Source: Vulcanimicrobiota bacterium
GTDB lineage: Bacteria; Vulcanimicrobiota; SpSt-956; JAKJGF01
Length of the DNA stretch: 38,110 bases
Direction: 5' to 3'
Assembly: GCA_040217695.1 (NCBI GenBank)
Contig: JBEHWO010000021.1
Span: 1-38,110 of the forward strand
Part shown: positions 15,873-38,010 of the stretch, piece after piece
How the letters are laid out: every line of letters begins with the position of its first letter
Position numbering within the stretch: the first letter of the stretch is position 1
Made by a program: the position numbers and the translations under genes
The notes under the pieces: generated by a model
What the model was told of the DNA's origin: nothing
Database searches by the model: none
The model's input: the letters and a program-made list of their open reading frames with translations, nothing else

Positions 15873-15978
15873 TTATTGACCTGAGCATAAGCATGTAATA
15901 AAGGTCTTCTTCCCGTCACGCGTTACGCGTCACGGGTCACGAGAGCAGTTATGTATTATTTATGCTCACCTCAGTAAT
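15873..15978. repeat. About 105-bp dispersed intergenic element, copy A (CCTGAGCATAAGCATG ... CGTNACG heptamer core ... TTATTTATGCTCACCTCAG)
   Basis: It is near-identical to 37763-37868 and its 5' end matches 37988-38010. The ends are imperfect inverted repeats (GAGCATAA / TTATGCTC). An internal array CGTCACGCGTTACGCGTCACGGGTCACG is present. Confidence 0.8.
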
Positions 15979-17285: not shown

Positions 17286-17378
17286 AAGTGAGTAGTGAGT
17301 AGTGAGTCGTGAAAAGTGAAAAGTGAAAAATGCTCAGGCTTGCCATACGCATCACGCGTCACGCGTCACGCGTCACGA
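17286..17378. repeat. Composite repeat block L: (GTGAGTA)2 GTGAGTC (GTGAAAA)3 - ATGCTCAGGCTTGCCATACGCATCACG - (CGTCACG)3
   Basis: Its reverse complement recurs at 18544-18686. It overlaps the 3' end of hemW, whose last about 4 codons are encoded by the repeat. Confidence 0.8.
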
Positions 17379-18535
17379 TTATACTGAGTGGCTTGCTGCT
17401 CACCTTTTATATTCAGACAAATTGCTTCATAAAGGTCAACAATGGCAGTATTTGACATAAGGAAACCTTCTGCTGTAAGGCAAAGGCTGTTGTTCCTGTA
17501 ATAATAAAGTTCTTCCGGTAAAAAAGCATGAAATTTTTCAATTATATTGTCAGGGTTAAAATTATATTCTTCTGAAAGTTTTTTTAAATCGAGGCCGGAA
17601 TTTTTTCTTAACGAAAGAAAGATTTTTTCGAGGAGTATGTCTTCTCTGTTCCTGTTTTCCGGTTCTTCTATGGCAAGTTTTTTGTTTTCTATATTTTTTA
17701 TATATTCTCCCAGAGAATCAGGATTTTTAAATCTTTTGCCCTCTATATACGAAGAACCTGACGGCCCCAGGGCAAGATATTCGCTGAAATCCCAGTAAGA
17801 CCAGTTGTGCCGGCACAGATAGCCGGGTTTGCAGAAATTTGATATCTCATAGTGCTCATATCCCATTTCTTTCAGCTTTTCCGAGATCCTTAAATACATA
17901 TCTCTGTAAAGATCTTCATCTGTTTTTTGATTGTACATATTAAAAAAACATGTGTCTTCTTCCAGGATGAGTCCGTAAAAAGAAAGATGTTGTGGATTAT
18001 ATATTTTTATAAAGTCAAATTCCCTGTTCAGTTCGTCCAGAGTTTGCCCCGGTATATTATAGATAAAATCGAAATTTATATTTTTAAAGTCCAGTCCGTA
18101 GATATAATCAAGTATTTTATAAATCTGAGAGACTCTGTGATTTCTTCCGAGAACACAGAGATTTCTGTCAAGACATGACTGAACGCCCACACTCAATCTG
18201 TTTATGCCTGATTCTTTATAGAATTTAAGTTTTTCCTGTGCAAGGGATTCCGGGTTTGTTTCGATAGTAATTTCAGTGTTTTTATTTACATGAAGGATGT
18301 CCAGAATATTCTCCAAATGGTGCGGGGAAAGCAGGGAAGGAGTACCTCCTCCTATATAGATTGACTCTATATGGTTGAAATCAAACAAAGAAGAATAGAG
18401 ATTGATCTCTTCTGTCAAGGTTTTAATATAGGCTTCGACAGAGTCAAGATCTTCTATGGAGTAAAAGGCGCAGTAGGGACATTTATTTTTACAGAAAGGT
18501 ATGTGTATATAAAGATAGAGTTTTTTATGTTCCAT
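17366..18535 (-). CDS. hemW: HemW/HemN-like radical SAM protein (oxygen-independent coproporphyrinogen-III oxidase family / heme chaperone)
   Basis: The track ORF is 17366..18640. Its first 35 codons are read through the repeat array. The real start is MEHKKLYLYIHIPFCKNKCPYCAFYS, with ATG at 18533-18535, carrying the CxxxCxxC motif (CKNKCPYC). The protein is about 389 aa. The lepA-hemW adjacency is conserved synteny. Confidence 0.8.
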   Translation of the reverse strand: MEHKKLYLYIHIPFCKNKCPYCAFYSIEDLDSVEAYIKTLTEEINLYSSLFDFNHIESIYIGGGTPSLLSPHHLENILDILHVNKNTEITIETNPESLAQEKLKFYKESGINRLSVGVQSCLDRNLCVLGRNHRVSQIYKILDYIYGLDFKNINFDFIYNIPGQTLDELNREFDFIKIYNPQHLSFYGLILEEDTCFFNMYNQKTDEDLYRDMYLRISEKLKEMGYEHYEISNFCKPGYLCRHNWSYWDFSEYLALGPSGSSYIEGKRFKNPDSLGEYIKNIENKKLAIEEPENRNREDILLEKIFLSLRKNSGLDLKKLSEEYNFNPDNIIEKFHAFLPEELYYYRNNSLCLTAEGFLMSNTAIVDLYEAICLNIKGEQQATQYNRDA

Positions 18536-18543
18536 TATAATTT

Positions 18544-26721: not shown

Positions 26722-27363
26722 TTATAATGTTACGCTATTTGCTTCATTTCTTGCTACATAATAATGGACAGGAACGCTATTGTTAAAAGAATTACTTTCT
26801 CTCATTACTTTATTTGTTTTACCTATATTATTTATCATAGGATTCTCAGATGGTTCATAACCGGGACGAACTGTTGCCACATGGCCGTGTCCTTTTTTAT
26901 TTGCCTGTGTACCCACTACAGGGAGTCCATTATTTGCATATTCCTGGGCTTTTTTCGGATCTACTTCACTCCAGTAGCCATTTTCTTCTTTTGCAGAAGC
27001 TGCCAGATTTTTTGCTATAACATTTGCCGTAAGGGCACACCCGCTTTTATGGGCAACCCCTGCTTCTTCTACAGGAACTCCCAGTTGTTTTAACGTACTA
27101 TTTAATCCTTCGTTACAGAAGGTTTTTCCGTCACGTGGTTTGAAGCGTTTGTTTTTTATCGCTTTATCCTGTGCAGTTGTGAGCGATTCTAATCTTGCTT
27201 TTTTCAAATCTTCTTTAGATAAAGTGCTGTCTCCAGGTGCTGTTGTCTCCTGGCCGGCAGGGGGAGTAATAGCCTTAAAAGGAACTTTAGGCTGTGTGAT
27301 CTGCGTATTTATGATGTTATTATATGGAAGATTATAAGGAAAAGATGTCTTTAAACTATCCAT
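26722..27363 (-). CDS. Hypothetical protein with putative papain-fold Cys/His hydrolase domain (NlpC/P60-CHAP-Tae4-like), no signal peptide
   Basis: 213 aa. The N-terminal 90 aa are low-complexity and Pro/Thr/Gln-rich. A candidate catalytic Cys lies in KTFCNEGLNSTLKQLGV. A candidate catalytic His lies in a GHGHVATVRPG motif, similar to the GHV(A/G)xV motif of NlpC/P60 and CHAP amidases. This is motif-level only. Confidence 0.3.
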   Translation of the reverse strand: MDSLKTSFPYNLPYNNIINTQITQPKVPFKAITPPAGQETTAPGDSTLSKEDLKKARLESLTTAQDKAIKNKRFKPRDGKTFCNEGLNSTLKQLGVPVEEAGVAHKSGCALTANVIAKNLAASAKEENGYWSEVDPKKAQEYANNGLPVVGTQANKKGHGHVATVRPGYEPSENPMINNIGKTNKVMRESNSFNNSVPVHYYVARNEANSVTL

Positions 27364-27483
27364 TTATTTAAGCCTTCTTTCATTCTGAATATATGTTTAT
27401 ATTTACAAATATTATATATTTTTAAATTATTAATGTCAATTATTTGATAACTTAAGAAATATGACGTATAATATATTATAGTC

Positions 27484-27608
27484 GTAACGCGTTACGGGTT
27501 TAATCCCTGCGCATCACGCATTACGCATTACGCATTACGCATTACGACGTTATTATGTTTATATATAAAATAAACCATCGCGTCACGCGTCACGCGTCAC
27601 GCGTCACG
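27484..27608. repeat. Cluster of heptamer arrays: CGTAACG/CGTTACG, (CATTACG)4, (CGTCACG)4
   Basis: The sequences are gtaacgcgttacgg ... gcatcacgcattacgcattacgcattacgcattacg ... cgcgtcacgcgtcacgcgtcacgcgtcacg. The last array ends 7 nt before the histidine kinase ATG, leaving no room for a Shine-Dalgarno sequence. Confidence 0.85.
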
Positions 27609-27615
27609 AATTACT

Positions 27616-29343
27616 ATGAATATACGTAAAAAAACACTTATCGTTATAATAATTACATTTATATTTTTAATTATATTGCTTTATATAATTTCAAGAGTAA
27701 TACTTCTGGGAGGCTTTATTGATTTAGAGAAAAAAACCGTTACAAGGAATGTAGAAAGAGCTGTAAATGCATTGCAGGATGAATATATCTCTCTGGCAGC
27801 CATTACAGGAGACTGGGCTCCCTGGGATGAGACCTATAAATTTATTGAAGATTTAAATAAATCCTATATAAATGATAATCTCAACAGGGCAACTCTTGTG
27901 AATTTAAGGGTTAATCTTATATTTTTTATTAATTCTTCAGGGGAAATGGTTTTTTCTAAAGGAGTTGATCTTGTATCAGGTAAAGAGATACATGCCGGAA
28001 GTCTGAATGGTTTTTTAAGTGACACTTCGCCGCTTTTAAACCACCAGAGCACGACCAGCAGTGTTGTAGGTATTATTATGTTTCAGGGAAGGCCTATGAT
28101 TGTTTCCTCCCGTCCTATTCTTACGAATGAATGGAAAGGCCCTTCGAGAGGTACACTGATTATGGGGAGATTTATCGATGATGCAGAGGTTAACAGGCTC
28201 AGAGATATTACATCTCTTTCGATTAATATCTATAAACTGTCTGCACTGGATCTGCCTTATGATGTCCGGCAGGTAAAGGATCATTTCTTGAAAGAAACAG
28301 GTATTTTTGTGAGACCTCTTAACAGAGATTATACGGCAGGTTACATTATGTTAAAAGATATTTACGGACAACCTGTCCTTATATTAAAGGTAGATATGGT
28401 AAGAGAGATTTACCTTCAGGGAAAGAGGAGTCTCTACTATTTTATACTGTCCTTTCTCGTAGTTGCAATTGTACTTGGCATGGTAAATATGTTACTCCTG
28501 GATATGACAGTTCTTTCCCGTCTTTATCTTTTGAGTAACAGTGTTGACAATATAGGTCTTATAAAGGATCTTTCCCTGAAGAAATTACTCCCCGGAGAGG
28601 ACGAAATTGCTTCTCTTGCCTGTACCATTGACAGCATGCTTGAAAGACTGGATGCGTCAAGTGAACAGATAAGACATGCAGACAGACTGGCCACTATAGG
28701 AAAATTTGCTTCAGGCATAGCCCATGAATTAAATGAACCGCTGGGAAATATACTTGGTTTTGCACAGCTTGCAAAACAGTATCCGTCTCTCCCGGAACAG
28801 ACTGTAGCAGATCTTGAAAAAATAGAAAAATCTTCTCTTTATGCAAGAGAGATAGTAAAAAAACTGCTCCTCTTCGCCAGACAGGTACCTTCTCATAAGG
28901 TTACTCTGAATATTAATGAGATAATTAAAGACAGCCTTTATTTTTTTGAAGGAAAATGCGAACAGTCCGGTATAGAAGTGATTATTCAGCTTTCAGAAAC
29001 TCTTCCTCCTGTTACAGCAGATCCTTCTCAGATGACACAGATACTGATTAATCTTGTAACCAATGCCATTCATGCTATGCCAGACGGAGGAATGCTTGAA
29101 ATAAAGACTTATTCATCTGAAGATTCTATCTCTCTTATTGTAGCAGATACAGGAAAAGGCATGAATGATGAGACTAAAAAACATATATTCAATCCTTTCT
29201 TTACTACAAAAGATGTTGATCAGGGAACAGGTCTGGGGCTTGCCGTGGTACATGGTATAGTTTCTTCTCATGGAGGACATATTAAGATTGACAGTAAAGA
29301 GGGTAATGGAGCAAGGTTTGAAATACAGATACCTTTAACGTAA
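27616..29343 (+). CDS. Sensor histidine kinase with periplasmic CHASE(4)-like domain, HAMP, HisKA and HATPase domains
   Basis: 575 aa. TM1 is IVIIITFIFLIILLYII. A periplasmic domain of about 250 aa follows. TM2 is YYFILSFLVVAIVLGMV. The H-box is GIAHELNEP. The G2 box is GTGLGLAVVHGIV. The sensor-domain class is assigned from memory of CHASE4 architecture. Confidence 0.85.
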   Translation: MNIRKKTLIVIIITFIFLIILLYIISRVILLGGFIDLEKKTVTRNVERAVNALQDEYISLAAITGDWAPWDETYKFIEDLNKSYINDNLNRATLVNLRVNLIFFINSSGEMVFSKGVDLVSGKEIHAGSLNGFLSDTSPLLNHQSTTSSVVGIIMFQGRPMIVSSRPILTNEWKGPSRGTLIMGRFIDDAEVNRLRDITSLSINIYKLSALDLPYDVRQVKDHFLKETGIFVRPLNRDYTAGYIMLKDIYGQPVLILKVDMVREIYLQGKRSLYYFILSFLVVAIVLGMVNMLLLDMTVLSRLYLLSNSVDNIGLIKDLSLKKLLPGEDEIASLACTIDSMLERLDASSEQIRHADRLATIGKFASGIAHELNEPLGNILGFAQLAKQYPSLPEQTVADLEKIEKSSLYAREIVKKLLLFARQVPSHKVTLNINEIIKDSLYFFEGKCEQSGIEVIIQLSETLPPVTADPSQMTQILINLVTNAIHAMPDGGMLEIKTYSSEDSISLIVADTGKGMNDETKKHIFNPFFTTKDVDQGTGLGLAVVHGIVSSHGGHIKIDSKEGNGARFEIQIPLT

Positions 29344-29373
29344 CATGTGACGCGTGACGGGAGAATTGTAATG

Positions 29374-29390
29374 TGACGCATAATGCGTCA
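29374..29390. promoter_or_regulatory. Perfect palindrome TGACGCAT-A-ATGCGTCA centred on the annotated response-regulator ATG
   Basis: Seen directly in the sequence: 8-bp arms with a 1-nt centre. Upstream lies GTGACGCGTGACGGGAG, a heptamer repeat boundary. Confidence 0.5.
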
Positions 29391-30759
29391 TAAACACAGG
29401 GAAGGTGTGTATAAAGTGTCTGATAAGGAACGCATATTAATTGTAGATGATTCAATAAATACCCTGGAGGTTCTTCAGAGAAATCTTACTTCTCAGGGAT
29501 ATAAAGTATTCACTGCTTCAGGTGTGGGAGAAGCAATCAAGCTTCTTGAAACATTAACACTTGATCTGGTAATAACGGATCTCCGTATGCCAAAAGTAAG
29601 CGGTATGGATCTGATAAGGCATGTAAGGGAAAATTTTAAAGATACGGAAATTATGATGATTACCGGTTATGCCTCTATTGAAAGTGCTGTCGAAGCGGTA
29701 AAGATTGGTGCAGAGGAATACCTTTCCAAACCCTTTACATCTGAAGAACTTTTTGCGGCAGTAAGACGTACTCTGGACAAACTCATACTCAGGAGAGCCA
29801 GAAATAAATCAACTGATATTGCCCCTGCTCCCTATGGTATAATAGGCCAGTCTGTAGCAATTAAAAAGATTTTTTCCGATATAGAGAAAGCTGCTTCAAC
29901 ATCTGCTACTGTTCTTATCACCGGTGAAAGCGGTACAGGAAAAGAGCTTGTTGCCAGAGCGATACATTATACCGGCCCCCGTGCATCTTCACCCTTTGTC
30001 CCGGTAAATTGCGGCGGCATACCGGAAGGTTTACTGGCAAGCGAGCATTTTGGCCATGTAAAAGGTTCTTTTACCGGTGCTACGGAAACAAGAGCAGGTT
30101 TTTTTCAGACTGCAGACGGAGGAACTATATTCCTTGATGAAATAAGTGATACAGGCCTTTCCATGCAGGCAAAACTGCTCCGTGTTCTTCAGGAAAAAGA
30201 AGTCTGTATGGTAGGTTCCACAAAAACAAGAAAAGTGGATGTAAGGGTTCTTGCTGCGACCAATAAAGATCTCCGGTTACTATCTAACAAAGGTGTCTTC
30301 CGGGAAGATTTATATTTCCGCCTTAATGTTATTACTATCGATCTCCCGCCACTCCGTGAGAGAGGAGAAGATATTGTATTATTAACATATTATTTTGCCG
30401 CAAAATTTGCCGGAGAAGCAGGCAAATCAGTTCCGTCTTTTTCGGATAATGCTCTTCAGGTTATAAAAAACTATCACTGGCCCGGAAATATAAGAGAACT
30501 TGAGAATGTAATCAACCGCCTTGTAGTTATGACAGACGGAAATTTGATCGAAGTTCCTGATTTACCGTCTCTTATGCGCTTCTCTGCCCTCAGAACAGCA
30601 GGCCTTAACAGACCTCTTGCAGAGGTAGAATTAGAATATATATCCAATGTTCTGTCGAGTGTGGGAGGAAATAAAACACAGGCGTCGGAAATACTGGGAA
30701 TTGACAGGAAGACACTCAGAGAAAAATTGAAAAAATTTAAGCTCGATGATGAATCGTGA
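29383..30759 (+). CDS. Sigma-54-dependent response regulator (NtrC/PilR family: REC + AAA+ sigma-54 activator + Fis-type HTH)
   Basis: 458 aa. The REC domain carries ILIVDDS...DLVITDLRMP. The Walker A is GESGTGKELVARAIH. The GAFTGA-equivalent is GSFTGA. The C-terminal HTH is KTQASEILGIDRKTLREKL. An alternative start is the in-frame GTG at 29416, 11 nt after a GGGAAGG RBS. The annotated ATG lies inside the palindrome at 29374-29390. Confidence 0.9.
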   Translation: MRHKHREGVYKVSDKERILIVDDSINTLEVLQRNLTSQGYKVFTASGVGEAIKLLETLTLDLVITDLRMPKVSGMDLIRHVRENFKDTEIMMITGYASIESAVEAVKIGAEEYLSKPFTSEELFAAVRRTLDKLILRRARNKSTDIAPAPYGIIGQSVAIKKIFSDIEKAASTSATVLITGESGTGKELVARAIHYTGPRASSPFVPVNCGGIPEGLLASEHFGHVKGSFTGATETRAGFFQTADGGTIFLDEISDTGLSMQAKLLRVLQEKEVCMVGSTKTRKVDVRVLAATNKDLRLLSNKGVFREDLYFRLNVITIDLPPLRERGEDIVLLTYYFAAKFAGEAGKSVPSFSDNALQVIKNYHWPGNIRELENVINRLVVMTDGNLIEVPDLPSLMRFSALRTAGLNRPLAEVELEYISNVLSSVGGNKTQASEILGIDRKTLREKLKKFKLDDES

Positions 30760-30840
30760 GTAGTGAGTCGTGAAGGGTGAATTTTACGCGTCACCCGTCA
30801 CGCGTTACGCGTCACGATTATAACGCATCACGTCTCACGG
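30760..30840. repeat. Heptamer arrays (GTGAGTA/GTGAGTC, CGTCACG/CGTTACG/CATCACG)
   Basis: The sequence is tgagtagtgagtcgtgaagggtgaattttacgcgtcacccgtcacgcgttacgcgtcacgattataacgcatcacgtctcacgg. Confidence 0.8.
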
Positions 30841-31000
30841 ACCATGCAAAAAATCGGGTAATTTTTCCCCACCGAGGTATATTTCCCCGAAAAAAACAGT
30901 CTTTTTTATGTGGATTTTCCTTCTTTAAAATTTTTTATTTTTTATTCAATTCCTTATTCCATAAAGAAAAAATCACGCCTCTATATCTTTAAAATTCCTG

Positions 31001-31017
31001 TTGGTACAGAACCTGCT
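31001..31017 (+). promoter_or_regulatory. Candidate sigma-54 (-24/-12) promoter: TTGGTACagaacCTGCTA
   Basis: It matches TGGCACG-N4-TTGCW at 10 of 12 specified positions. The invariant GG and GC are at the correct 10-bp offset. The predicted transcription start near 31028 lies 60 nt upstream of the small Cys-rich ORF and the kinase and pilin genes. The site is immediately downstream of an NtrC-type activator gene. Confidence 0.45.
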
Positions 31018-31087
31018 ATTATAGTAATTGAAACACTGAATGTATAATCTTCAAAGGTATAATCTTTCCGGTAAAAGGAGAAATTCG

Positions 31088-31312
31088 ATGTTAAAAAGCA
31101 GAGATTACAGTTATGATAATAAATGTCTCTATCTTACTTCATGTGATCTCTGTAACCCCGGAATAACAGAGGAGAATAATCTTATTGTTCACAATAATGT
31201 AAGAGATTATACTGAAGGCCTGTGTGCTCATTGCGTAAAAACTGGTACATGTGCAATTGCCAGAGCAGAAGGCGGTATCTGGCGTTGCAGTGATTATATA
31301 GAAAATGAATAA
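31088..31312 (+). CDS. Small Cys-rich protein (74 aa), putative zinc-ribbon-like, unknown function
   Basis: The track ORF starts at 31040. The preferred start is ATG 31088 (MLKSRDYSYDNKCLY...), with an AAAGGAG RBS 7 nt upstream. It has seven Cys with mirror-symmetric spacing: C-x5-C-x2-C, then 23 residues, then C-x2-C-x5-C, plus a C-terminal Cys. Confidence 0.45.
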   Translation: MLKSRDYSYDNKCLYLTSCDLCNPGITEENNLIVHNNVRDYTEGLCAHCVKTGTCAIARAEGGIWRCSDYIENE

Positions 31313-31353
31313 TTTAAAGTTTAACCGAAAAGGATGTGGGAAAGGTGAAAGTT

Positions 31354-33327
31354 ATGAGAGAAACAGCCCGATTATCTAAAGATACTGTTCTTGGTGATAA
31401 ATATAAAATTGTTCAGGTTTTATCAGGTGAAGGTGAAGAAAATGATCTTACATATATAGCCTTTGATATTTATAACCCTGAAAAAAATGTGTTAATAAGG
31501 GAACTTGTATTTTCTATATCCGATGATAAATTCAGGAAAGAAGTTATAGATTCTCTTGAAGAAAGAATTAAACATATTATTAATATAAGTCATGAAAACC
31601 TGAGCCCTGTATTTGATATTTTTACGGAAGATGAAAAGGAATTCCTGAAATACAGGGTTTATATTGTTACTGAGGCGGAAAACGCAGGCAGACTAAACCT
31701 GGTTCAGGCTATAAAAGAATATAATAATGAAGAAATACCCTTTGATAAAATTAAAGAGTGGGGAGAACAGATATGTGATGCCCTTTCTGCCCTTCATAAT
31801 TCTGCCGGAGGGCCAATCATATTTTATGATCTCAGACCTGAAAATATACTTTTGACAGGTGAAGGCAAAATAAAGCTGACAGATTACGGACTTTCAAGAA
31901 TGTTAGATAAAGGATTCTCTCATAATAAATATATGGGAACCCCCGGATATTCGGCACCTGAACAGTATGGTTTAAAGCCTGTTGATACCAGAGCTGATAT
32001 CTTCGGTGTGGGAGCTTTATTATATTATATGCTGACAAAGGAAGATCCGAGAAATAATCCCCTGAATTTTTCTCCCCTGAGAGGTAAGAAAGAACTGGGC
32101 GAGATTGCTACAAAGTGTATAGATTTCAATCTGGATAAAAGGATACAGAAAATTGATGAAGTCAGGGCATTACTCGGAAATATTTCTCCTGACATATCTC
32201 AGGCACGATCTGTGACTATAAAAATGAAGCAGAAGATTGAAACGGGAAAAACTCTGGATGCCAGGCCCCAATCTTTCATAGGAGAAATCTGCAATTCTAT
32301 ATCCTGGAATTTGAAAAAATTCTGGTATGCCCATATGAATCAGTTAATAGCCATAGGTGCAATATGTTTATTATGCCTGGCAGGTGTTGCCATAATGTTT
32401 GCCACTTCAAGGGGAGGAGGCATGGAGAGGGTTATAGTTATAGGAGGAAATGGCCCTGAAATAGTCTCAATGGATATAAAGAAACCTGAAAACCTGGAGC
32501 TTTTTAAAACAAAAAATAAACTCGTTGGTGAAGCGGTGCTGAGCAGGAACGGCAAATATATTTATGCAGCTTCAAGCCCTGACCTTCTGGGATGTTTTGA
32601 TCTGGAAAAAAATCAGATGGCAACACATATAAAAGTAGGCACTGAACCCAGAGGTATGTGTTTTTCTCCTGTTCAGAATTATCTTGCCGTGACAGGGAGT
32701 GCTTCAGACTGTGTAACTCTTGTAGACACAGATTATAATAATCCTGTTGCTACATTGAAAAGTAACGGTAAAGGGCCTGTAGCAGTATGTTTCTCTTCTA
32801 CAGGACAGGAGCTTTTTGTTGTGAATAAAACCTCTGCAACTGTAGATTCTATGGAAATTACAGGTAATTTAACAGGTTCAATAAAAATTAATGGTTCTCC
32901 TGTAGATATTATTAATCCCGATTATAATAATAAATTGTACCTATCGGTATGGGATAAGAATCAAATTCTTGTTATAGATGGAGATAAAAGACAGATTATT
33001 TCAGAAATAAAAACCAGCGATGGCCCCGGAAAAATAGCTTTTTCCAGAGACAGGAAAATGATTGCCGTAGCATGCGGAAAATCTCAGGAAGTTATTCTTG
33101 TATCAATTGTGGATGACAGGGTTATAGATAAAATTAAATTTCAAAATATACCATGCAGTCTTACTTTTTCTAAAGACGGAAAACAGCTTTATACCGGAAC
33201 AACTACCTTCGATCATGCTTTAAATTATATTTATGTATGGGACCTTGATAACAGGACTAGCAGGAAGGTTGCAAGCCCTGCTATTACTGCTACAAATCTT
33301 ATATTTGTTGCTTCTGATGTGAAATAA
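31354..33327 (+). CDS. Membrane-anchored Hanks-type Ser/Thr protein kinase homolog (atypical catalytic motifs) fused to extracytoplasmic YVTN-type beta-propeller
   Basis: The track start is GTG 31336. The preferred start is ATG 31354, with a GGAAAGGTG RBS 6 nt upstream. The kinase subdomains present are YDLRPENILL (HRDLKPEN position reads FYD-LRPEN), DYG in place of DFG, and GTPGYSAPEQ (APE). The Gly-rich loop is degenerate (LSGEGEEN). No clear VAIK lysine is present. A TM helix is LIAIGAICLLCLAGVAIMFATS. Repeated C-terminal beta-propeller blades carry YVTN-like motifs (YIYAASS, YLAVTGS, LFVVNK, LYLSVWD, MIAVACG). Confidence 0.75.
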   Translation: MRETARLSKDTVLGDKYKIVQVLSGEGEENDLTYIAFDIYNPEKNVLIRELVFSISDDKFRKEVIDSLEERIKHIINISHENLSPVFDIFTEDEKEFLKYRVYIVTEAENAGRLNLVQAIKEYNNEEIPFDKIKEWGEQICDALSALHNSAGGPIIFYDLRPENILLTGEGKIKLTDYGLSRMLDKGFSHNKYMGTPGYSAPEQYGLKPVDTRADIFGVGALLYYMLTKEDPRNNPLNFSPLRGKKELGEIATKCIDFNLDKRIQKIDEVRALLGNISPDISQARSVTIKMKQKIETGKTLDARPQSFIGEICNSISWNLKKFWYAHMNQLIAIGAICLLCLAGVAIMFATSRGGGMERVIVIGGNGPEIVSMDIKKPENLELFKTKNKLVGEAVLSRNGKYIYAASSPDLLGCFDLEKNQMATHIKVGTEPRGMCFSPVQNYLAVTGSASDCVTLVDTDYNNPVATLKSNGKGPVAVCFSSTGQELFVVNKTSATVDSMEITGNLTGSIKINGSPVDIINPDYNNKLYLSVWDKNQILVIDGDKRQIISEIKTSDGPGKIAFSRDRKMIAVACGKSQEVILVSIVDDRVIDKIKFQNIPCSLTFSKDGKQLYTGTTTFDHALNYIYVWDLDNRTSRKVASPAITATNLIFVASDVK

Positions 33328-33349
33328 TTATACAAAGGGGGGGATATAT

Positions 33350-33787
33350 ATGGCTAAAGAGAAAGGTATCACTTTGATGGATGCCATGATTTCCGTTACA
33401 GTTCTTGCTATTGGATTTTTAATGATTTTAACGGTTATTCCCGGCACAGGAATCTTTATAAAAAATTCTGAAAATAAACTTGTTGCAAAACAGCTTGCTC
33501 AGACTTATCTGGAATTATATTCCAGTCCCCAGCACTGGTCAGAGATAAATACGTCAGGATTTAATATTACAAGAACTGAAACCGTCACTACCACTATAAA
33601 CGGAAGAATTACTTCTATGAACTATACAGTATATGTAACATCTTATCCGTATGCAGGTGCTACTGGTGAACTTTACAATCTGAATGCCAGAGTTACATGG
33701 CAGGAACAGAATCTGGGTAAATCCCTTACTGCAGCAGGTAAGATTAAACAGATAGAACTCGTTACGATTGTTATAAATCCCAATTAG
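33350..33787 (+). CDS. Type IV pilin-like / pseudopilin (minor pilin) protein
   Basis: 145 aa. The N-terminus MAKEKG|ITLMDAMISVTVLAIGFLMIL is a class III (prepilin) signal with Gly at -1 and an acidic Asp at +5, followed by a hydrophobic helix. An AAAGGGGGGGA RBS lies upstream. Confidence 0.6.
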   Translation: MAKEKGITLMDAMISVTVLAIGFLMILTVIPGTGIFIKNSENKLVAKQLAQTYLELYSSPQHWSEINTSGFNITRTETVTTTINGRITSMNYTVYVTSYPYAGATGELYNLNARVTWQEQNLGKSLTAAGKIKQIELVTIVINPN

Positions 33788-33801
33788 AAAAGAGGTGTGT
33801 T

Positions 33802-34476
33802 ATGTTTAATAAATTTAAAGGTGTTACAATAACTGAACTTCTTGTTACCATTGCTGTTATGGGTCTTATGTTCAGTATGATACTTGCCATCATGGTTCTT
33901 CTTAAAAGAAGTTATAGTGAAGAAGACAGCCGTTCTGCCATGCAGCAGAATGCTGCAGTGGCTCTGGCAAAACTTACGAGAGAACTTATGGAATCTTCTT
34001 ATAAGACTACAACCATATATAATCCTTCAAGTTCCAGTCCTCCTACAGGCATAATATTTGCTTCTGCCAGGCAGATTTCTAATTATAATAAATTTGATCT
34101 CGACCCGAATAATTCTCTATGTGTATGGCATAAATATGTATGTTATTATATAGATACAGACCCCGAACGGGCGTCACAGAAAGCTCTTTTCAGAAGAGAA
34201 ACCTATATAAATGAACCTTCCGGAACTACAACAAAAGGTGCCTCCAGTTTAAGTACTAGTAACTTTGTGACCGGCGGTACGGGATATTCACCGGCAATAG
34301 TTATAGCCCACAGGGTAGAAGATCTGGATTTCCCTGATCTCGGTGTCGGTAATTTCGGGCCTGCACAGATCGGTAATGTTCTGCCTTTGAAAGTATCACT
34401 GAAAATTGCCGAAAAATCAGCCACACAGAATTATAACGCCGTGACTCTTACTTTTACAATGAATATGAATAATTAA
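33802..34476 (+). CDS. Type IV pilin-like / pseudopilin (minor pilin) protein
   Basis: 224 aa. The N-terminus MFNKFKG|VTITELLVTIAVMGLMFSMILAI is a canonical prepilin peptidase site with Glu at +5. An AGAGGTG RBS lies upstream. Confidence 0.7.
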   Translation: MFNKFKGVTITELLVTIAVMGLMFSMILAIMVLLKRSYSEEDSRSAMQQNAAVALAKLTRELMESSYKTTTIYNPSSSSPPTGIIFASARQISNYNKFDLDPNNSLCVWHKYVCYYIDTDPERASQKALFRRETYINEPSGTTTKGASSLSTSNFVTGGTGYSPAIVIAHRVEDLDFPDLGVGNFGPAQIGNVLPLKVSLKIAEKSATQNYNAVTLTFTMNMNN

Positions 34477-34503
34477 GCTTATAAATAAAAAGGAGGGAAA
34501 GAC

Positions 34504-35877
34504 ATGTATAAAAAATATATCAAAAATCAGAAAGGCATAGGAGTTGCCATTACTCTTCTTGCCATAATGATTATTTCAATTTTAGGTATGGCCCTTCTTA
34601 TAAGAAGCACATCCCTTGCAGGAGTCATTACACAGAAAAATTATACCATTACTGCTACGGAAGCAGCAAAAGCAGGTATATCTCATGCCATACACATGGT
34701 TGAAGCAGACCTTTACTATACCACTCCTATTTCTTATACTCCTCTTTCAACCTATACAGTTACAAACCATGTTGAAAGAGGCTACTACAAAGTAGATCTA
34801 TTAAATAATCTGGAAGGTACCGTTCCTCTGACTTCTCCTTACAGCGGTTATGTCGTTCCTCCGGGAGTGATTGAAGTGGTATCCACCGGATATGCAGGTA
34901 ATCCCGTTTTAAACGAACAGAAGAGAACCATGAAGATTGTTGCAATGGGAAACAGACTGGATGTTCAATTTAATCCCTGGAGTAATGCTCTTACACTGGG
35001 GGGAACTATTAATCCCGGCGGTGATGCAGGAGGTAATGAAATCCTTACGGACAGTTACGATTCTTCTGCAGTTCCACCTCGTTATTCAGGAGGTACAGAA
35101 GGAGATATTGCAATATTAAACCTTGATCAAACTGTAGACCTGGGCTCCAGAAACATACAGGGAGAAATAAAAGTGCCTGAGGGCGCCAGTGTGACCGGAA
35201 CGGGCACATATCTGGATGCAAACGGTGTTCAGCATGACCTTGATGACCCGAACCGGTATTTTACTTCTATGACAGACCCATTTGTTATGACTTCTGTTAT
35301 GCAGAAGACTCCCGGAACTGTTGATGTTAAAAATAACGCCACTTTGTCTCCGGGAGCATACCGCGATATGTTCCTGGAAAGTAACAGGACCATAGTGCTG
35401 GAACCTGGCACTTATATATTCAGAGATATTATCAACAGCGGAGGAGGATCTTCCAAAGGACGTGTAAATCTCAAGCTTAACGGACCTGTGAAGATCTTTG
35501 TTACCGGTAATATCTCTATGACCGGAAATGTCAATATTAATTCTATTCAGGAAGCAGATGGTACATGTCATCCCGATCGTCCCGCTTCTTATCTTAAGGT
35601 TTTTGGAACAGAAACCTGTACCAGTGTAACTATTGGAGGTTCTGTATGTTTCTGTGGCGGTGTATATGCTCCCGATGCCACATTTACCTTTAATGGCCTG
35701 GGTGGCAATAATGAAAAAGTAAAATCTGATCTATGGGGGTCTTTCGCAGGAAATAATGCCGTATTTTCAGGTGCTAAAGTAAGTATTCATTATGATGAAA
35801 TGCTTAACGACGGAAATATTGAAACATTTTATACAGGTATTGCAAAGGATAGTATGAGGTGGGTTTACGGATACTAA
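34504..35877 (+). CDS. PilX-N-like minor pilin / putative pilus tip adhesin, paralog 1
   Basis: 457 aa. The N-terminus NQKGIGVAITLLAIMIISILGMALL is a PilX_N-type hydrophobic segment with no Glu5. A large Gly/Thr/Asn-rich C-terminal region carries GNVNINSI-type beta-rich repeats. An AAGGAGG RBS lies upstream. Confidence 0.6.
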   Translation: MYKKYIKNQKGIGVAITLLAIMIISILGMALLIRSTSLAGVITQKNYTITATEAAKAGISHAIHMVEADLYYTTPISYTPLSTYTVTNHVERGYYKVDLLNNLEGTVPLTSPYSGYVVPPGVIEVVSTGYAGNPVLNEQKRTMKIVAMGNRLDVQFNPWSNALTLGGTINPGGDAGGNEILTDSYDSSAVPPRYSGGTEGDIAILNLDQTVDLGSRNIQGEIKVPEGASVTGTGTYLDANGVQHDLDDPNRYFTSMTDPFVMTSVMQKTPGTVDVKNNATLSPGAYRDMFLESNRTIVLEPGTYIFRDIINSGGGSSKGRVNLKLNGPVKIFVTGNISMTGNVNINSIQEADGTCHPDRPASYLKVFGTETCTSVTIGGSVCFCGGVYAPDATFTFNGLGGNNEKVKSDLWGSFAGNNAVFSGAKVSIHYDEMLNDGNIETFYTGIAKDSMRWVYGY

Positions 35878-36165
35878 TATTGTAATATCATAAACAGGAA
35901 GGAAGATTATTATAGATATTATTATTCGGAAAGATACATCTAAATTAAAACAATGTGCCTGGTGCAAAAAGATAAAAAACGCTGATACAGGCATATGGAA
36001 GGAAACAGGAGAACTTATTCAGGGGATCAGTCATACTGTCTGCCCTGAGTGTAATAAACAGTTATGGAAAAACTATCTTGAAACATGTGAGGCTGAGGAA
36101 GAATAAGTTGAAGTGAAAGCTAATTACCGAGACAGGTAAATTCGTAACTATTTATGAATTATTTA

Positions 36166-36335
36166 TATGAGAATCGTGACGCGTAACGCGTAACGCGTGA
36201 CGGGAGGAAGACAAAATCACAGATTGTCCGGTGTTATATTTTTCTCTGTCACCCTGGGACTGACCGAAAAATACCTCCGGCAGTTATTATAACGATCAGT
36301 ATCCTCGCGTAACGCGTCACCCGTTACGCGTTACG
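36166..36335. repeat. Inverted heptamer arrays flanking a 100-bp unique core
   Basis: The left array is tatgagaatcgtgacgcgtaacgcgtaacgcgtgacgggagg (36166-36207). The right array is cgcgtaacgcgtcacccgttacgcgttacg (36306-36335), which is approximately the reverse complement of the left. The left array is near-identical to 20960-21000. Confidence 0.8.
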
Positions 36336-36359: not shown

Positions 36360-37748
36360 TCACTCGAAGATCCATCTCATAGAACCCTTTGCTATACCTG
36401 CATAATAACGTTCCCCTTCTGAGTCCAGGGCTTTATCGTAGTGAATACTTATTTTTGCTCCGTTAAATGTAGCACTCTTCCCGGCAAAGGAACCCCACAG
36501 GTCAGAGTTTGTATTACCCATGCCATGAAATATAAAATCAGCATTGGGGGCATATATGGATCCGCAAAAGCTTCCTCCCCCTCCCATTTCTACAGAGGTA
36601 CAACTGCTGGTTCCGAAGATCTTCAGTTGAGAAGCCGGTTCGTCCGGATGGGTAACAGTTTTATTACCATGTTCCTTTTCTTCTCTGATAGTATTGATAT
36701 TTACATTTCCCGAAAGATTAATACTTCCTGTGACATAAAGAGTCACATTTCCGTTAACCTTCAGATTTATATCTGCATTACCTCCTCCTGAAAGGGTAAG
36801 ATTCCTGAAAATATAGGCACCTTCATTTAATACTGTAGTAATGTTACCACTTATTAATAAATCTCTGTAAGCACCTCCGCCGGTCAGGGTCTGGCCGGGA
36901 TTTACGTCAGCAGTCCCGGGAATCTTTTCCTGCACGGGAGGCAGAACAATTGGTTCCGCCATAACAGTATAATTTGTGTCAGGCAGGGTACGGGAAATAC
37001 CGTTCGGGTCGAGATAGTTGCCGCTGCCGCTTACAGCAGTTCCAGGAGGAACCTTTATTTCTCCTTTAATATTTCTGTCACCGAGCTCAACGGCTGGATT
37101 GCTGTCGGGATCATTGGGATCTGATTTTACACCGTTTGCCGCAATATCTCCGTCATTACCTCCTGAATAAACACCGGGTTCTACGGAAGAATCGTAACTG
37201 TCTGTAAGAATGGAATTACCTCCTGCACCGCCGCCGGGAGTAATCTTTCCGCTCAGGGTAATAGCATTGCTCCATGGATTGAATGTTGCATCCACCCTGT
37301 TTCCCATTGTAATAATTTTTATAGTTTTTTTCTGGTTACCTGCAGCAGGATTGCCCGAATATCCGGTAGAGATTACCTCGATTACTCCCGGAGGAATAAC
37401 ATAACCACTCCTGGGAGAGGTCAGGGGAGAAGCTCCTGACAGATTATTTGTTATATCCACTTTATAGTATCCTCTTTCACTATCCGGCGTAATAGTATAG
37501 GTTGACAGAGGAGTGCAAGAAATAGAAGCGGAATAGTAAAGATCCGTTTCAACCCGGTGTATGGCATGAGATATACCAGCTTTTGCAGCTTCCGTAGCAG
37601 TGATGGAATAATTTTTCTGTGCAATTACTCCTGCCAGAGATGAACTTCTGATAAGAAGGGCCATACCTAGAATTGAAATAATCATTATGGCAAGAAGAGT
37701 AATAGCAATCCCTATACCTTTCTGATTTTTGATATATTTTTTATACAT
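36360..37748 (-). CDS. PilX-N-like minor pilin / putative pilus tip adhesin, paralog 2 (convergent with paralog 1)
   Basis: The track ORF is 36360..37784. Its first 12 codons (MLMLRSVKGANK) are read from repeat element B. The real start is MYKKYIKNQKGIGIAITLLAIMIISILGMALL at about 37748. The first 70 aa are about 90% identical to the 34504 gene. The architecture is collinear and the C-terminal halves diverge. Confidence 0.6.
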   Translation of the reverse strand: MYKKYIKNQKGIGIAITLLAIMIISILGMALLIRSSSLAGVIAQKNYSITATEAAKAGISHAIHRVETDLYYSASISCTPLSTYTITPDSERGYYKVDITNNLSGASPLTSPRSGYVIPPGVIEVISTGYSGNPAAGNQKKTIKIITMGNRVDATFNPWSNAITLSGKITPGGGAGGNSILTDSYDSSVEPGVYSGGNDGDIAANGVKSDPNDPDSNPAVELGDRNIKGEIKVPPGTAVSGSGNYLDPNGISRTLPDTNYTVMAEPIVLPPVQEKIPGTADVNPGQTLTGGGAYRDLLISGNITTVLNEGAYIFRNLTLSGGGNADINLKVNGNVTLYVTGSINLSGNVNINTIREEKEHGNKTVTHPDEPASQLKIFGTSSCTSVEMGGGGSFCGSIYAPNADFIFHGMGNTNSDLWGSFAGKSATFNGAKISIHYDKALDSEGERYYAGIAKGSMRWIFE

Positions 37749-37762
37749 TTTATTTGCCCCCT

Positions 37763-37868
37763 TTACTGACCTGAGCATAAGCATGTAATAACAGTCTTCC
37801 TCCCGTGACGCGTCACGCGTTACGCGTCACGAGAGCAGATATTTATTATTTATGTTCACCTCAGTAAC
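37763..37868. repeat. About 105-bp dispersed intergenic element, copy B
   Basis: The sequence is actgacctgagcataagcatgtaataacagtcttcctcccgtgacgcgtcacgcgttacgcgtcacgagagcagatatttattatttatgttcacctcagtaa. It is near-identical to 15873-15978. Confidence 0.8.
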
Positions 37869-37987
37869 ATAAATTCTGTTGTATCCGGGGATGTTGAAGA
37901 GAAAATTTTGGTAGGATGTTATGTAATTCCCACAAAAGCTGACTGCTGATAGCCGAAGGCTTACGTAAAATTTTTCTGTTAAAGCTA

Positions 37988-38010
37988 TTACTGACCTGAG
38001 CATAAGCAAT
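37988..38010. repeat. 5'-end fragment of the same element (copy C, truncated)
   Basis: The sequence ttactgacctgagcataagcaat matches the first about 22 bp of copies A and B and then diverges. Confidence 0.6.

Follow-up and report, generated by a model that had tools for sequence, protein, structure and literature searches.

A 38,110-bp contig, the whole of which was analyzed and is referred to here as the window, comes from a metagenome-assembled genome (MAG) at NCBI labelled Candidatus Eremiobacterota. Downstream of the genes for a CHASE4 sensor histidine kinase and an NtrC-family sigma-54 activator, it carries six co-directional genes encoding a 74-aa protein (mini74), a transmembrane (TM) kinase-propeller protein (KinProp), three minor pilins (the trio), and a second small protein with four cysteines (small2). 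We consider it probable that this operon, under the control of a signal, specifies an alternative tip (priming) complex of a type IV pilus and a membrane partner dedicated to it. Control of pilin genes by two-component systems and sigma-54 and NtrC-like control of alternative tips are already known, and the solenoid PilX is newly recognized but described. New are the lineage, the CHASE4 input, and, most importantly, the fact that the tip set is obligately paired with Cys4 proteins and a pseudokinase-propeller protein of the membrane; literature searches combining pseudokinases with pili, and Eremiobacterota with the pilus, found no description of the module.

A kinase-propeller gene beside pilin genes

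The window kinase is the NCBI protein P0001 (100% identity in the homologue search), and related loci were gathered by exact homologue look-up and one genome-collection scan. That scan placed the KinProp family in no more than three or four MAGs, each of which has it at three or four paralogous loci. A metagenome scan with a kinase-family alignment rested on generic kinase motifs; nearly all of its matches were unrelated kinases, and one was a short close relative (L018). Prepilin genes adjoin KinProp in all 11 distinct loci, which fall into four module types. Type A (the window, L001, and L008, with L007 as a variant) has the order CHASE4 kinase, regulator, mini74, KinProp, trio, and small2; the variant is a paralogous module from the same MAG as L008, does not contain mini74, and carries an additional 220-aa PilW-like gene. 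Type B (L002/L003) combines regulators, mini74, KinProp, and a 1,272-aa double kinase-propeller protein with a convergent trio. In type C (L004, L009, and L010), trio, KinProp, and small2 lie downstream of genes for a PP2C-type phosphatase or PilT, and the L004 gene for the large pilin runs 8 nt into the start of KinProp. In type D (L011 and L012), KinProp stands opposite a unit of a double kinase, pilins, and a PD40 propeller. The window kinase shares 78% identity with those of L001 and L008 and 47% with that of L002/L003. That this adjacency stays constant through rearrangement is what chiefly suggests that KinProp and the trio are functionally linked; how they are linked is an inference.

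Two observations were made along the way. L006 (identical to L001; contig CAYSLJ010000099.1) is labelled "uncultured Synergistia bacterium," yet it is fully syntenic with Eremiobacterota/Vulcanimicrobiota contigs; a wrong taxonomic label or an error in binning is the probable reason. The proteins with a double kinase and a YVTN propeller, found beside pilin genes in type B and D modules, are 1,270 to 1,290 aa long and may act as active partners of the degenerate KinProp.

KinProp consists of a cytoplasmic kinase domain (residues ~1 to 275), a disordered linker, a TM segment (331 to 349), and a seven-bladed YVTN propeller (357 to 654), and its AlphaFold2 (AF2) model shows a kinase fold, a long helix bearing the sole TM segment, and a confident seven-bladed propeller. 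The Pkinase profile scores 101.3 bits (cutoff, 31.7), spanning just profile positions 43 to 198, and the fold is supported by matches to the PDB kinases 4eqm and 9ymt. By structure, the propeller is nearest to the YVTN propeller 1l0q, Lp49, and YncE. Since the topology has a single TM segment with the N terminus inside and a signal peptide is lacking, the propeller is expected to lie outside the cytoplasm. An earlier note on this DNA had proposed an atypical kinase with an outward-facing propeller, and both the degenerate motifs and the topology prediction agree with it. We also considered a PilY1-like propeller and rejected it: Pfam gives no PilC/PilY1 match, PilY1 does not figure in the top 50 of the Foldseek search, and the topology is single-TM with the N terminus inside.

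The competing account that survives best, although we rate it as rather unlikely, holds that KinProp is an independent PknD-like receptor kinase with its own ligand and cytoplasmic targets, the pilins being merely co-regulated. Its kinase-TM-propeller architecture, with matches to NCBIfam PknD and PknB, is that of a receptor Ser/Thr kinase; however, the Gly-rich loop (SGEGEEND) is lost and the β3 Lys is replaced by Arg (VLIRE) throughout the window clade, HRD has become FYD, and members differ at the catalytic-loop Lys (Arg, Lys, or Ser). Still present in the window protein are Asp and Asn of the catalytic loop and the Asp of DYG (FYDLRPEN and DYG), whereas in a sister clade (P0008 to P0012) these positions read FYY..PDH and NFG or NYG, with the catalytic Asp changed to Tyr, the Asn to His, and the DFG Asp to Asn. 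The members of this sister clade are, from their motifs, plainly pseudokinases, yet they have the same pilin and small2 neighbours as the window clade. The P+1/APE region is invariant in both clades, which makes phosphotransfer unlikely as the conserved role of the family. A SpoIIE/PP2C phosphatase gene 5′ of the L010 module and the larger double-kinase proteins of types B and D would suit a signalling kinase; independence from the pilins, on the other hand, fits poorly with a pilin-trio adjacency kept in 11 of 11 rearranged loci and with the one gene overlap.

The minor-pilin trio and its DUF7305 paralogue

All three proteins encoded 3′ of KinProp carry class III signal peptides, with short, basic, Gly-ending leaders, cleavage contexts of KG↓ITLMD, KG↓VTITE, and KG↓IGVAI, and a hydrophobic helix of about 20 residues (residues 12 to 30, 14 to 32, and 15 to 33, respectively). 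For the 145-aa protein, the NCBIfam matches to PilV (E = 9e-5) and ComGE (E = 1e-3) were both below cutoff, N_methyl gave 13.2 bits (cutoff, 21.2), and the top PDB profile matches were full-length type IV pilins (E = 0.05). The 224-aa protein gave 15.0 bits with N_methyl, weak matches to ComGE, HpsC, and Verru_Chthon-C, and pilins as its top PDB profile matches (E = 0.007). Neither window protein reaches the Pfam N_methyl gathering score; a paralogue in L012 passes it (24.1 versus 21.2 bits). The 457-aa protein has nine relatives among 5.8 billion clusters, all with DUF7305, and its AF2 model comprises a long N-terminal helix, a pilin sheet, and a β-solenoid. This model matches ComZ, its nearest pilin match, and GspK, and the solenoid resembles an ice-binding protein. 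The lack of an acidic residue at +5 is as expected of the PilX type, and the pilin fold with an ice-binding-like solenoid, the missing Glu5, and the PilV- and PilW-like partners are together those of a β-solenoid PilX/ComZ protein. The trio is thus a PilV/PilW/PilX-type core minor-pilin priming/tip set, which would be processed by a prepilin peptidase and located at a pilus tip. A literature search on DUF7305 found no paper.

That the last three genes encode pilin-like proteins had been recognized in the earlier note and is supported here by the leaders, the hydrophobic helix, the +5 pattern, and the ComZ-/GspK-like model. Its further argument, that a locus without a major pilin, an ATPase, or a secretin is no standard pilus locus, is not supported: their absence is not anomalous, because minor-pilin sets, the β-solenoid PilX/ComZ type among them, are often encoded apart from the machine genes. 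The trio could instead be read as pseudopilins with a GspI/J/K-type tip, serving type II secretion-like or Hps-like export of protein or polysaccharide and forming no extended pilus. We regard this as improbable. The GspK and HpsC matches are of the kind it would predict; two PilT/PilU genes (382 and 463 bits; cutoff, 319) directly 5′ of the paralogous module in L004 favour a type IVa pilus machine, of the retractile kind, over a type II secretion system.

Beyond the operon lies a convergent DUF7305 paralogue, an alternative solenoid tip pilin. At the DNA level it is 94% identical to the gene for the 457-aa protein over the first 90 nt and about 50 to 60% identical in the 3′, solenoid-coding half, and close relatives have two DUF7305 paralogues of this kind. 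Because the 5′ 90 nt are nearly identical while the solenoid-coding half diverges, the paralogues may represent interchangeable tip domains on a shared stem. No −24/−12 match lies upstream of this gene. On the minus strand, in and next to the stretch at 37785 to 38010, a 21-nt sequence, TGCTTATGCTCAGGTCAGTAA, occurs twice 5′ of it, at ~38005 to 37985 and ~37782 to 37762. A 105-aa open reading frame (ORF) called upstream of the L015 paralogues looks spurious and was set aside.

Probable sigma-54 control of the operon and its small proteins

The best-supported part of the finding is the promoter. TGGTACAGAACCTGCT is the sole TGGYAY-N5-YTGCW match within the window and is weak by itself (0.27 expected; one or more matches in 25 of 100 shuffles). 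It becomes convincing because it is conserved in five further promoters: TTGG(T/C)AC-N5-YTGC is invariant, at the same relative position, in the window, L001, L008, L007, L002/L003, and the pilin unit of L002. In an alignment of the six sequences this conservation reaches down to 47% identity of the downstream kinase, the spacers having otherwise diverged, and five of the six promoters lie immediately downstream of a sigma-54 activator gene. That the match is fortuitous, with transcription coming from sigma-70 promoters or read-through from the regulator genes, is therefore very improbable, even though a lone match in 38 kb is not significant, and the conserved block upstream of the promoters further disfavours it.

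This upstream block lies about 115 to 145 bp 5′ of the −24 element and is conserved across the six-promoter alignment. In the window it contains the direct repeat ATTTTTCCCC/ATATTTCCCC, the two copies 18 bp apart, which makes it, as a candidate upstream activating sequence (UAS), the natural place for the regulator to bind. Between it and the promoter lies a partly conserved block with a site, TTCAATTCCTTAT, that resembles the consensus of integration host factor (IHF), WATCAANNNNTTR. In L002 the pilin trio forms a separate convergent unit that repeats both the promoter and the upstream element, so both L002 units appear to belong to one regulon, which the window fuses into one operon. The operon-level fusion of kinase-propeller and trio is specific to the sub-lineage of the window.

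The regulator gene encodes the complete domain set of an NtrC-family response regulator (a REC domain, an AAA+ domain, and a helix-turn-helix domain) beside an adjacent histidine kinase gene. Its Sigma54_activat match scored 223.8 bits (E = 1.4e-66, Pfam), its sigma-54 contact loop, read from the translation, is of the GAFTGA type (GSFTGA), and its top NCBIfam matches were AtoC, NtrC, and ZraR, each below its own cutoff. Orthologues are present in L001, L003, L007, and L008 (702 to 889 bits). In the sensor kinase, the CHASE4 match (E = 3.4e-42, Pfam) lies between TM segments at residues 7 to 25 and 277 to 295; orthologues occur in L001, L007, and L008, and the CHASE4 portion is a separate ORF in L003. 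A sigma-70-like promoter 5′ of the sensor kinase gene, a consensus match, would let the regulators be made independently of sigma-54. From the conserved activators and promoters, rpoN would be expected in the genome. The earlier note had placed the −24/−12 element correctly and had described a two-component/sigma-54 circuit with a CHASE-type, non-PilS-like sensor; the two-TM CHASE4 kinase, the complete enhancer-binding protein domains with their contact loop, and the conservation of the promoter in relatives all support that description.

The genes from mini74 to small2 probably share one transcript. The gaps between the first five are 41, 22, 14, and 27 nt, a Shine-Dalgarno sequence precedes each gene, and the gaps that separate the six contain no terminator-like site. 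From 30760 to 35900 the plus strand also has no sigma-70-like match to at least 10 of 12 positions. Scanning the window for Rfam families and tRNAs gave nothing. An operon of the five genes downstream of the promoter had already been suggested, and the positions and domains of all seven genes, the two regulatory ones included, were recovered as described. Ribosome-binding sites were indeed found for every gene, while the gaps, given before as 22 to 45 bp, measure 14 to 41 nt; a sixth co-directional gene, small2, had been overlooked.

Described before as a 74-aa Cys-rich protein, mini74 does have 74 residues, only four of its Cys (C46, C49, C55, and C67) being conserved. These lie in an invariant motif, and the protein is probably metal binding. 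It had no relative in Pfam, NCBIfam, or PDB and none detectable beyond this lineage. A WhiB-like identity was not supported: against WhiB1, with its Wbl core C-x2-C-x5-C...G[VI]WGG, hhalign aligned the motifs with a probability of only 1.4%, and Pfam gave no match; paralogy with small2 fared no better (hhalign probability, 3.7%).

The small2 gene is kept 3′ of the DUF7305 gene in L001, L007, L008, and L015 to L017 (the last three from anaerobic digester or wastewater samples) and 3′ of KinProp in L004, L009, and L010. Type A copies have no in-frame ATG, GTG, or TTG; instead, a conserved ATT-ATA follows the Shine-Dalgarno sequence (AGGAAG in the window) by 4 to 8 nt, which suggests initiation at AUU. 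The copies in L007 and in type C modules start with ATG. Gene callers skip or shorten small2, as in a 45-aa call in L017. Its CxWC...GxW...SH-x-I/V-C-P-x-C motif also terminates PAS and REC signalling proteins, which fits a role as a signalling partner; Pfam and PDB profiles gave no significant match. Both mini74 and small2 are zinc-finger-like and are candidate partners of KinProp, with which they may be in contact.

Several neighbouring features lie outside these main elements. Divergent from the sensor kinase gene (25278 to 27363, minus strand) are a B12-binding radical-SAM-like gene, with weak TIGR04072 and Radical_SAM matches, and a gene for a 213-aa protein without a family match, served by a perfect sigma-70-like promoter (TTGACA-17-TATAAT, 27439 to 27411). 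Both are syntenic in L001 and L008; as they were not found near other module types, they are probably outside the module. At 21337 to 23796 (plus strand) lies a gene, conserved in L001 and L008, for a bacterial protein of 819 aa that is homologous to the major vault protein of eukaryotes and matches MVP_shoulder (95 bits) and Vault_3 (31 bits) above cutoff. Tandem heptamer repeats, (ACGCGTN)n, occupy nearly every intergenic region, often directly 5′ of start codons: ACGCGTNACG has 79 matches in the window with at most one mismatch, versus 1.0 expected. Similar repeats lie between genes in L001 and L008, and they resemble the cyanobacterial short tandemly repeated repetitive (STRR) heptamers. 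When translated, they yield spurious N-terminal extensions in some ORFs, such as 17366 to 18640.

Table 1. Coordinates of the features described in the window and in related loci
Feature	Sequence	Position	Strand	Description
Sigma-70-like promoter	Window	27444-27472	+	TTGATA-17-TATAAT, 11/12
Sensor histidine kinase	Window	27616-29343	+	TM, periplasmic CHASE4, TM, HisKA, HATPase_c
NtrC-family sigma-54 activator	Window	29383-30759	+	REC, Sigma54_activat, AAA_lid_14, HTH_8
Candidate activator-binding site (UAS)	Window	30855-30890	+	CGGGTA-N5-TCCCCACCGAGGTATATTTCCCCGA
IHF-like site	Window	30945-30957	+	TTCAATTCCTTAT
Sigma-54 −24/−12 promoter	Window	31002-31017	+	TGGTAC-AGAAC-CTGCT, TGGTACAGAACCTGCT
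mini74	Window	31088-31312	+	74 aa, cytoplasmic; invariant GLC-x2-C-x5-C-x5-EGGIW-x-C-x2-Y
KinProp	Window	31354-33327	+	657 aa; ATG start agrees with P0001
PilV-like minor pilin	Window	33350-33787	+	145 aa; leader ends MAKEKG, then ITLMD (Asp +5)
PilW-like minor pilin	Window	33802-34476	+	224 aa; leader ends MFNKFKG, then VTITE (Glu +5)
PilX/ComZ-like tip pilin	Window	34504-35877	+	457 aa; DUF7305; pilin fold and β-solenoid; no acidic +5
small2	Window	35909-36106	+	~65 aa; CAWCKK...GIW...SHTVCPEC, Cys4; apparent AUU start
small2	L001	14686-14898		Apparent AUU start
small2	L008	14776-14991		Apparent AUU start
Convergent DUF7305 paralogue	Window	36360-37748	−	462 aa from MYKKY
Double-kinase propeller protein	L002	3017-6835		
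Double-kinase propeller protein	L011	17820-21632	−	
Double-kinase propeller protein	L012	17592-21464	−	
Heptamer repeats	Window	15914-15941, 17347-17377, 18551-18623, 20969-20996, 21226-21256, 27483-27608, 29346-29359, 30786-30832, 36175-36202, 36305-36335, 37804-37831		

Proposed mechanism and comparison with known systems

In the mechanism we propose, the CHASE4 kinase would pick up an extracytoplasmic cue and phosphorylate the NtrC-family regulator, which would occupy the direct-repeat element upstream and, probably helped by an IHF-type bend, activate sigma-54 RNA polymerase at TGGTAC-N5-CTGCT. A single transcript would then yield the six proteins, with the trio as its PilV-like, PilW-like, and PilX/ComZ-like pilins. 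A prepilin peptidase encoded elsewhere would cleave the trio, which would then cap a filament and so prime it; the type IVa pilus machine that builds this filament, and its major pilin, would likewise be encoded elsewhere. Neither a prepilin peptidase nor an assembly machine lies in the window. At the tip, the solenoid could serve as an adhesin or a plug, and the convergent DUF7305 paralogue or paralogues would supply alternative tips on the same N-terminal stem. KinProp would sit in the cytoplasmic membrane with its propeller outside, near the pilin globular domains, and its degenerate kinase inside; most likely it would bind or monitor the cognate tip set and relay its state through scaffolding and not phosphotransfer, with mini74 and small2 as candidate partners in the relay.

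Several observations weigh against this proposal. The type C and D modules have no −24/−12 match, and sigma-54 control is not family-wide. The 145-aa and 224-aa proteins are called pilins from N-terminal features and sub-threshold matches, the model of the 457-aa protein is of moderate confidence (pLDDT of 70, from 11 sequences), and a FimT/FimU-type fourth core pilin is not in the operon, the window having three pilin genes and one PilX paralogue. The propeller is of a generic YVTN type without resemblance to PilY1, and the Asp and Asn residues retained by the window KinProp leave room for residual kinase activity.

We would go further only as a speculation, and an unlikely one: KinProp could be a new class of type IV pilus accessory protein, a TM pseudokinase whose periplasmic YVTN propeller docks the cognate tip complex at the base of the machine. 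Whether the tip is assembled, retracted, or loaded would be signalled to the cytoplasm by the kinase-like domain of KinProp and by mini74/small2. If so, KinProp would play, in a lineage with solenoid PilX tips, the part in surface sensing that falls to PilY1 in Proteobacteria, and each paralogous module would be a self-contained tip-plus-receptor cassette. How a retractile pilus reports tip contact to the cell is best studied for PilY1 in Proteobacteria. The constant pairing of a tip set with a propeller/pseudokinase offers a concrete candidate for a link from tip to cytoplasm, testable with recombinant proteins although the organism is uncultured. Moreover, the locus provides a sigma-54 promoter and activator site, cleanly footprinted by comparison, for an almost unstudied phylum, and Eremiobacterota join the groups that use ComZ-like solenoid tip pilins.

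Control of pilin genes by PilS-PilR and sigma-54 is established. As in that system, a histidine kinase and a sigma-54 activator are encoded in the window with pilin genes behind a −24/−12 promoter. Unlike the multi-TM PilS, however, the sensor crosses the membrane with just two TM segments, which flank a periplasmic CHASE4 domain, and its targets are minor pilins and not the major pilin, no gene for a major pilin-like protein being found within the operon.

The trio most resembles two described sets. ComZ/PilA2 of Thermus thermophilus is a tip pilin with a β-solenoid on a pilin fold (PMC6561018). In the cyanobacterial PilV-PilW-PilX-FimT sets, PilX likewise has a pilin fold and an ice-binding-like solenoid without Glu5 and has been proposed as a tip plug in place of PilY1; lineages with β-solenoid PilX tips generally lack PilY1, as stated for cyanobacteria (bioRxiv 10.64898/2026.02.12.705559). 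Like these, the window combines small and medium pilins with a large solenoid pilin without Glu5, encoded away from the machine genes, and several sets or paralogues occur per genome. It differs from them in having no FimT/FimU-type fourth pilin in the operon, in the undetectable sequence similarity (DUF7305, with only sub-threshold N-terminal matches), in its sigma-54 and two-component control instead of CRP/cAMP, and in the co-encoded kinase-propeller and Cys4 proteins.

Myxococcus xanthus has three minor-pilin/PilY1 clusters under differential control by the NtrC-like HsfBA phosphorelay (PMC7541494, PMC9109919). NtrC-family control of alternative tip sets and a co-encoded β-propeller protein are shared with these clusters and with fimU-pilVWXY1E-type operons; in contrast to PilY1, the propeller of the window is of the YVTN type and is not secreted but TM-tethered to a cytoplasmic kinase-like domain. 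Finally, KinProp has the same domain order and predicted topology as PknD-type receptor Ser/Thr kinases, whereas its motifs are degenerate, its seven-bladed YVTN propeller is nearest to 1l0q, and it is always found with pilin genes.

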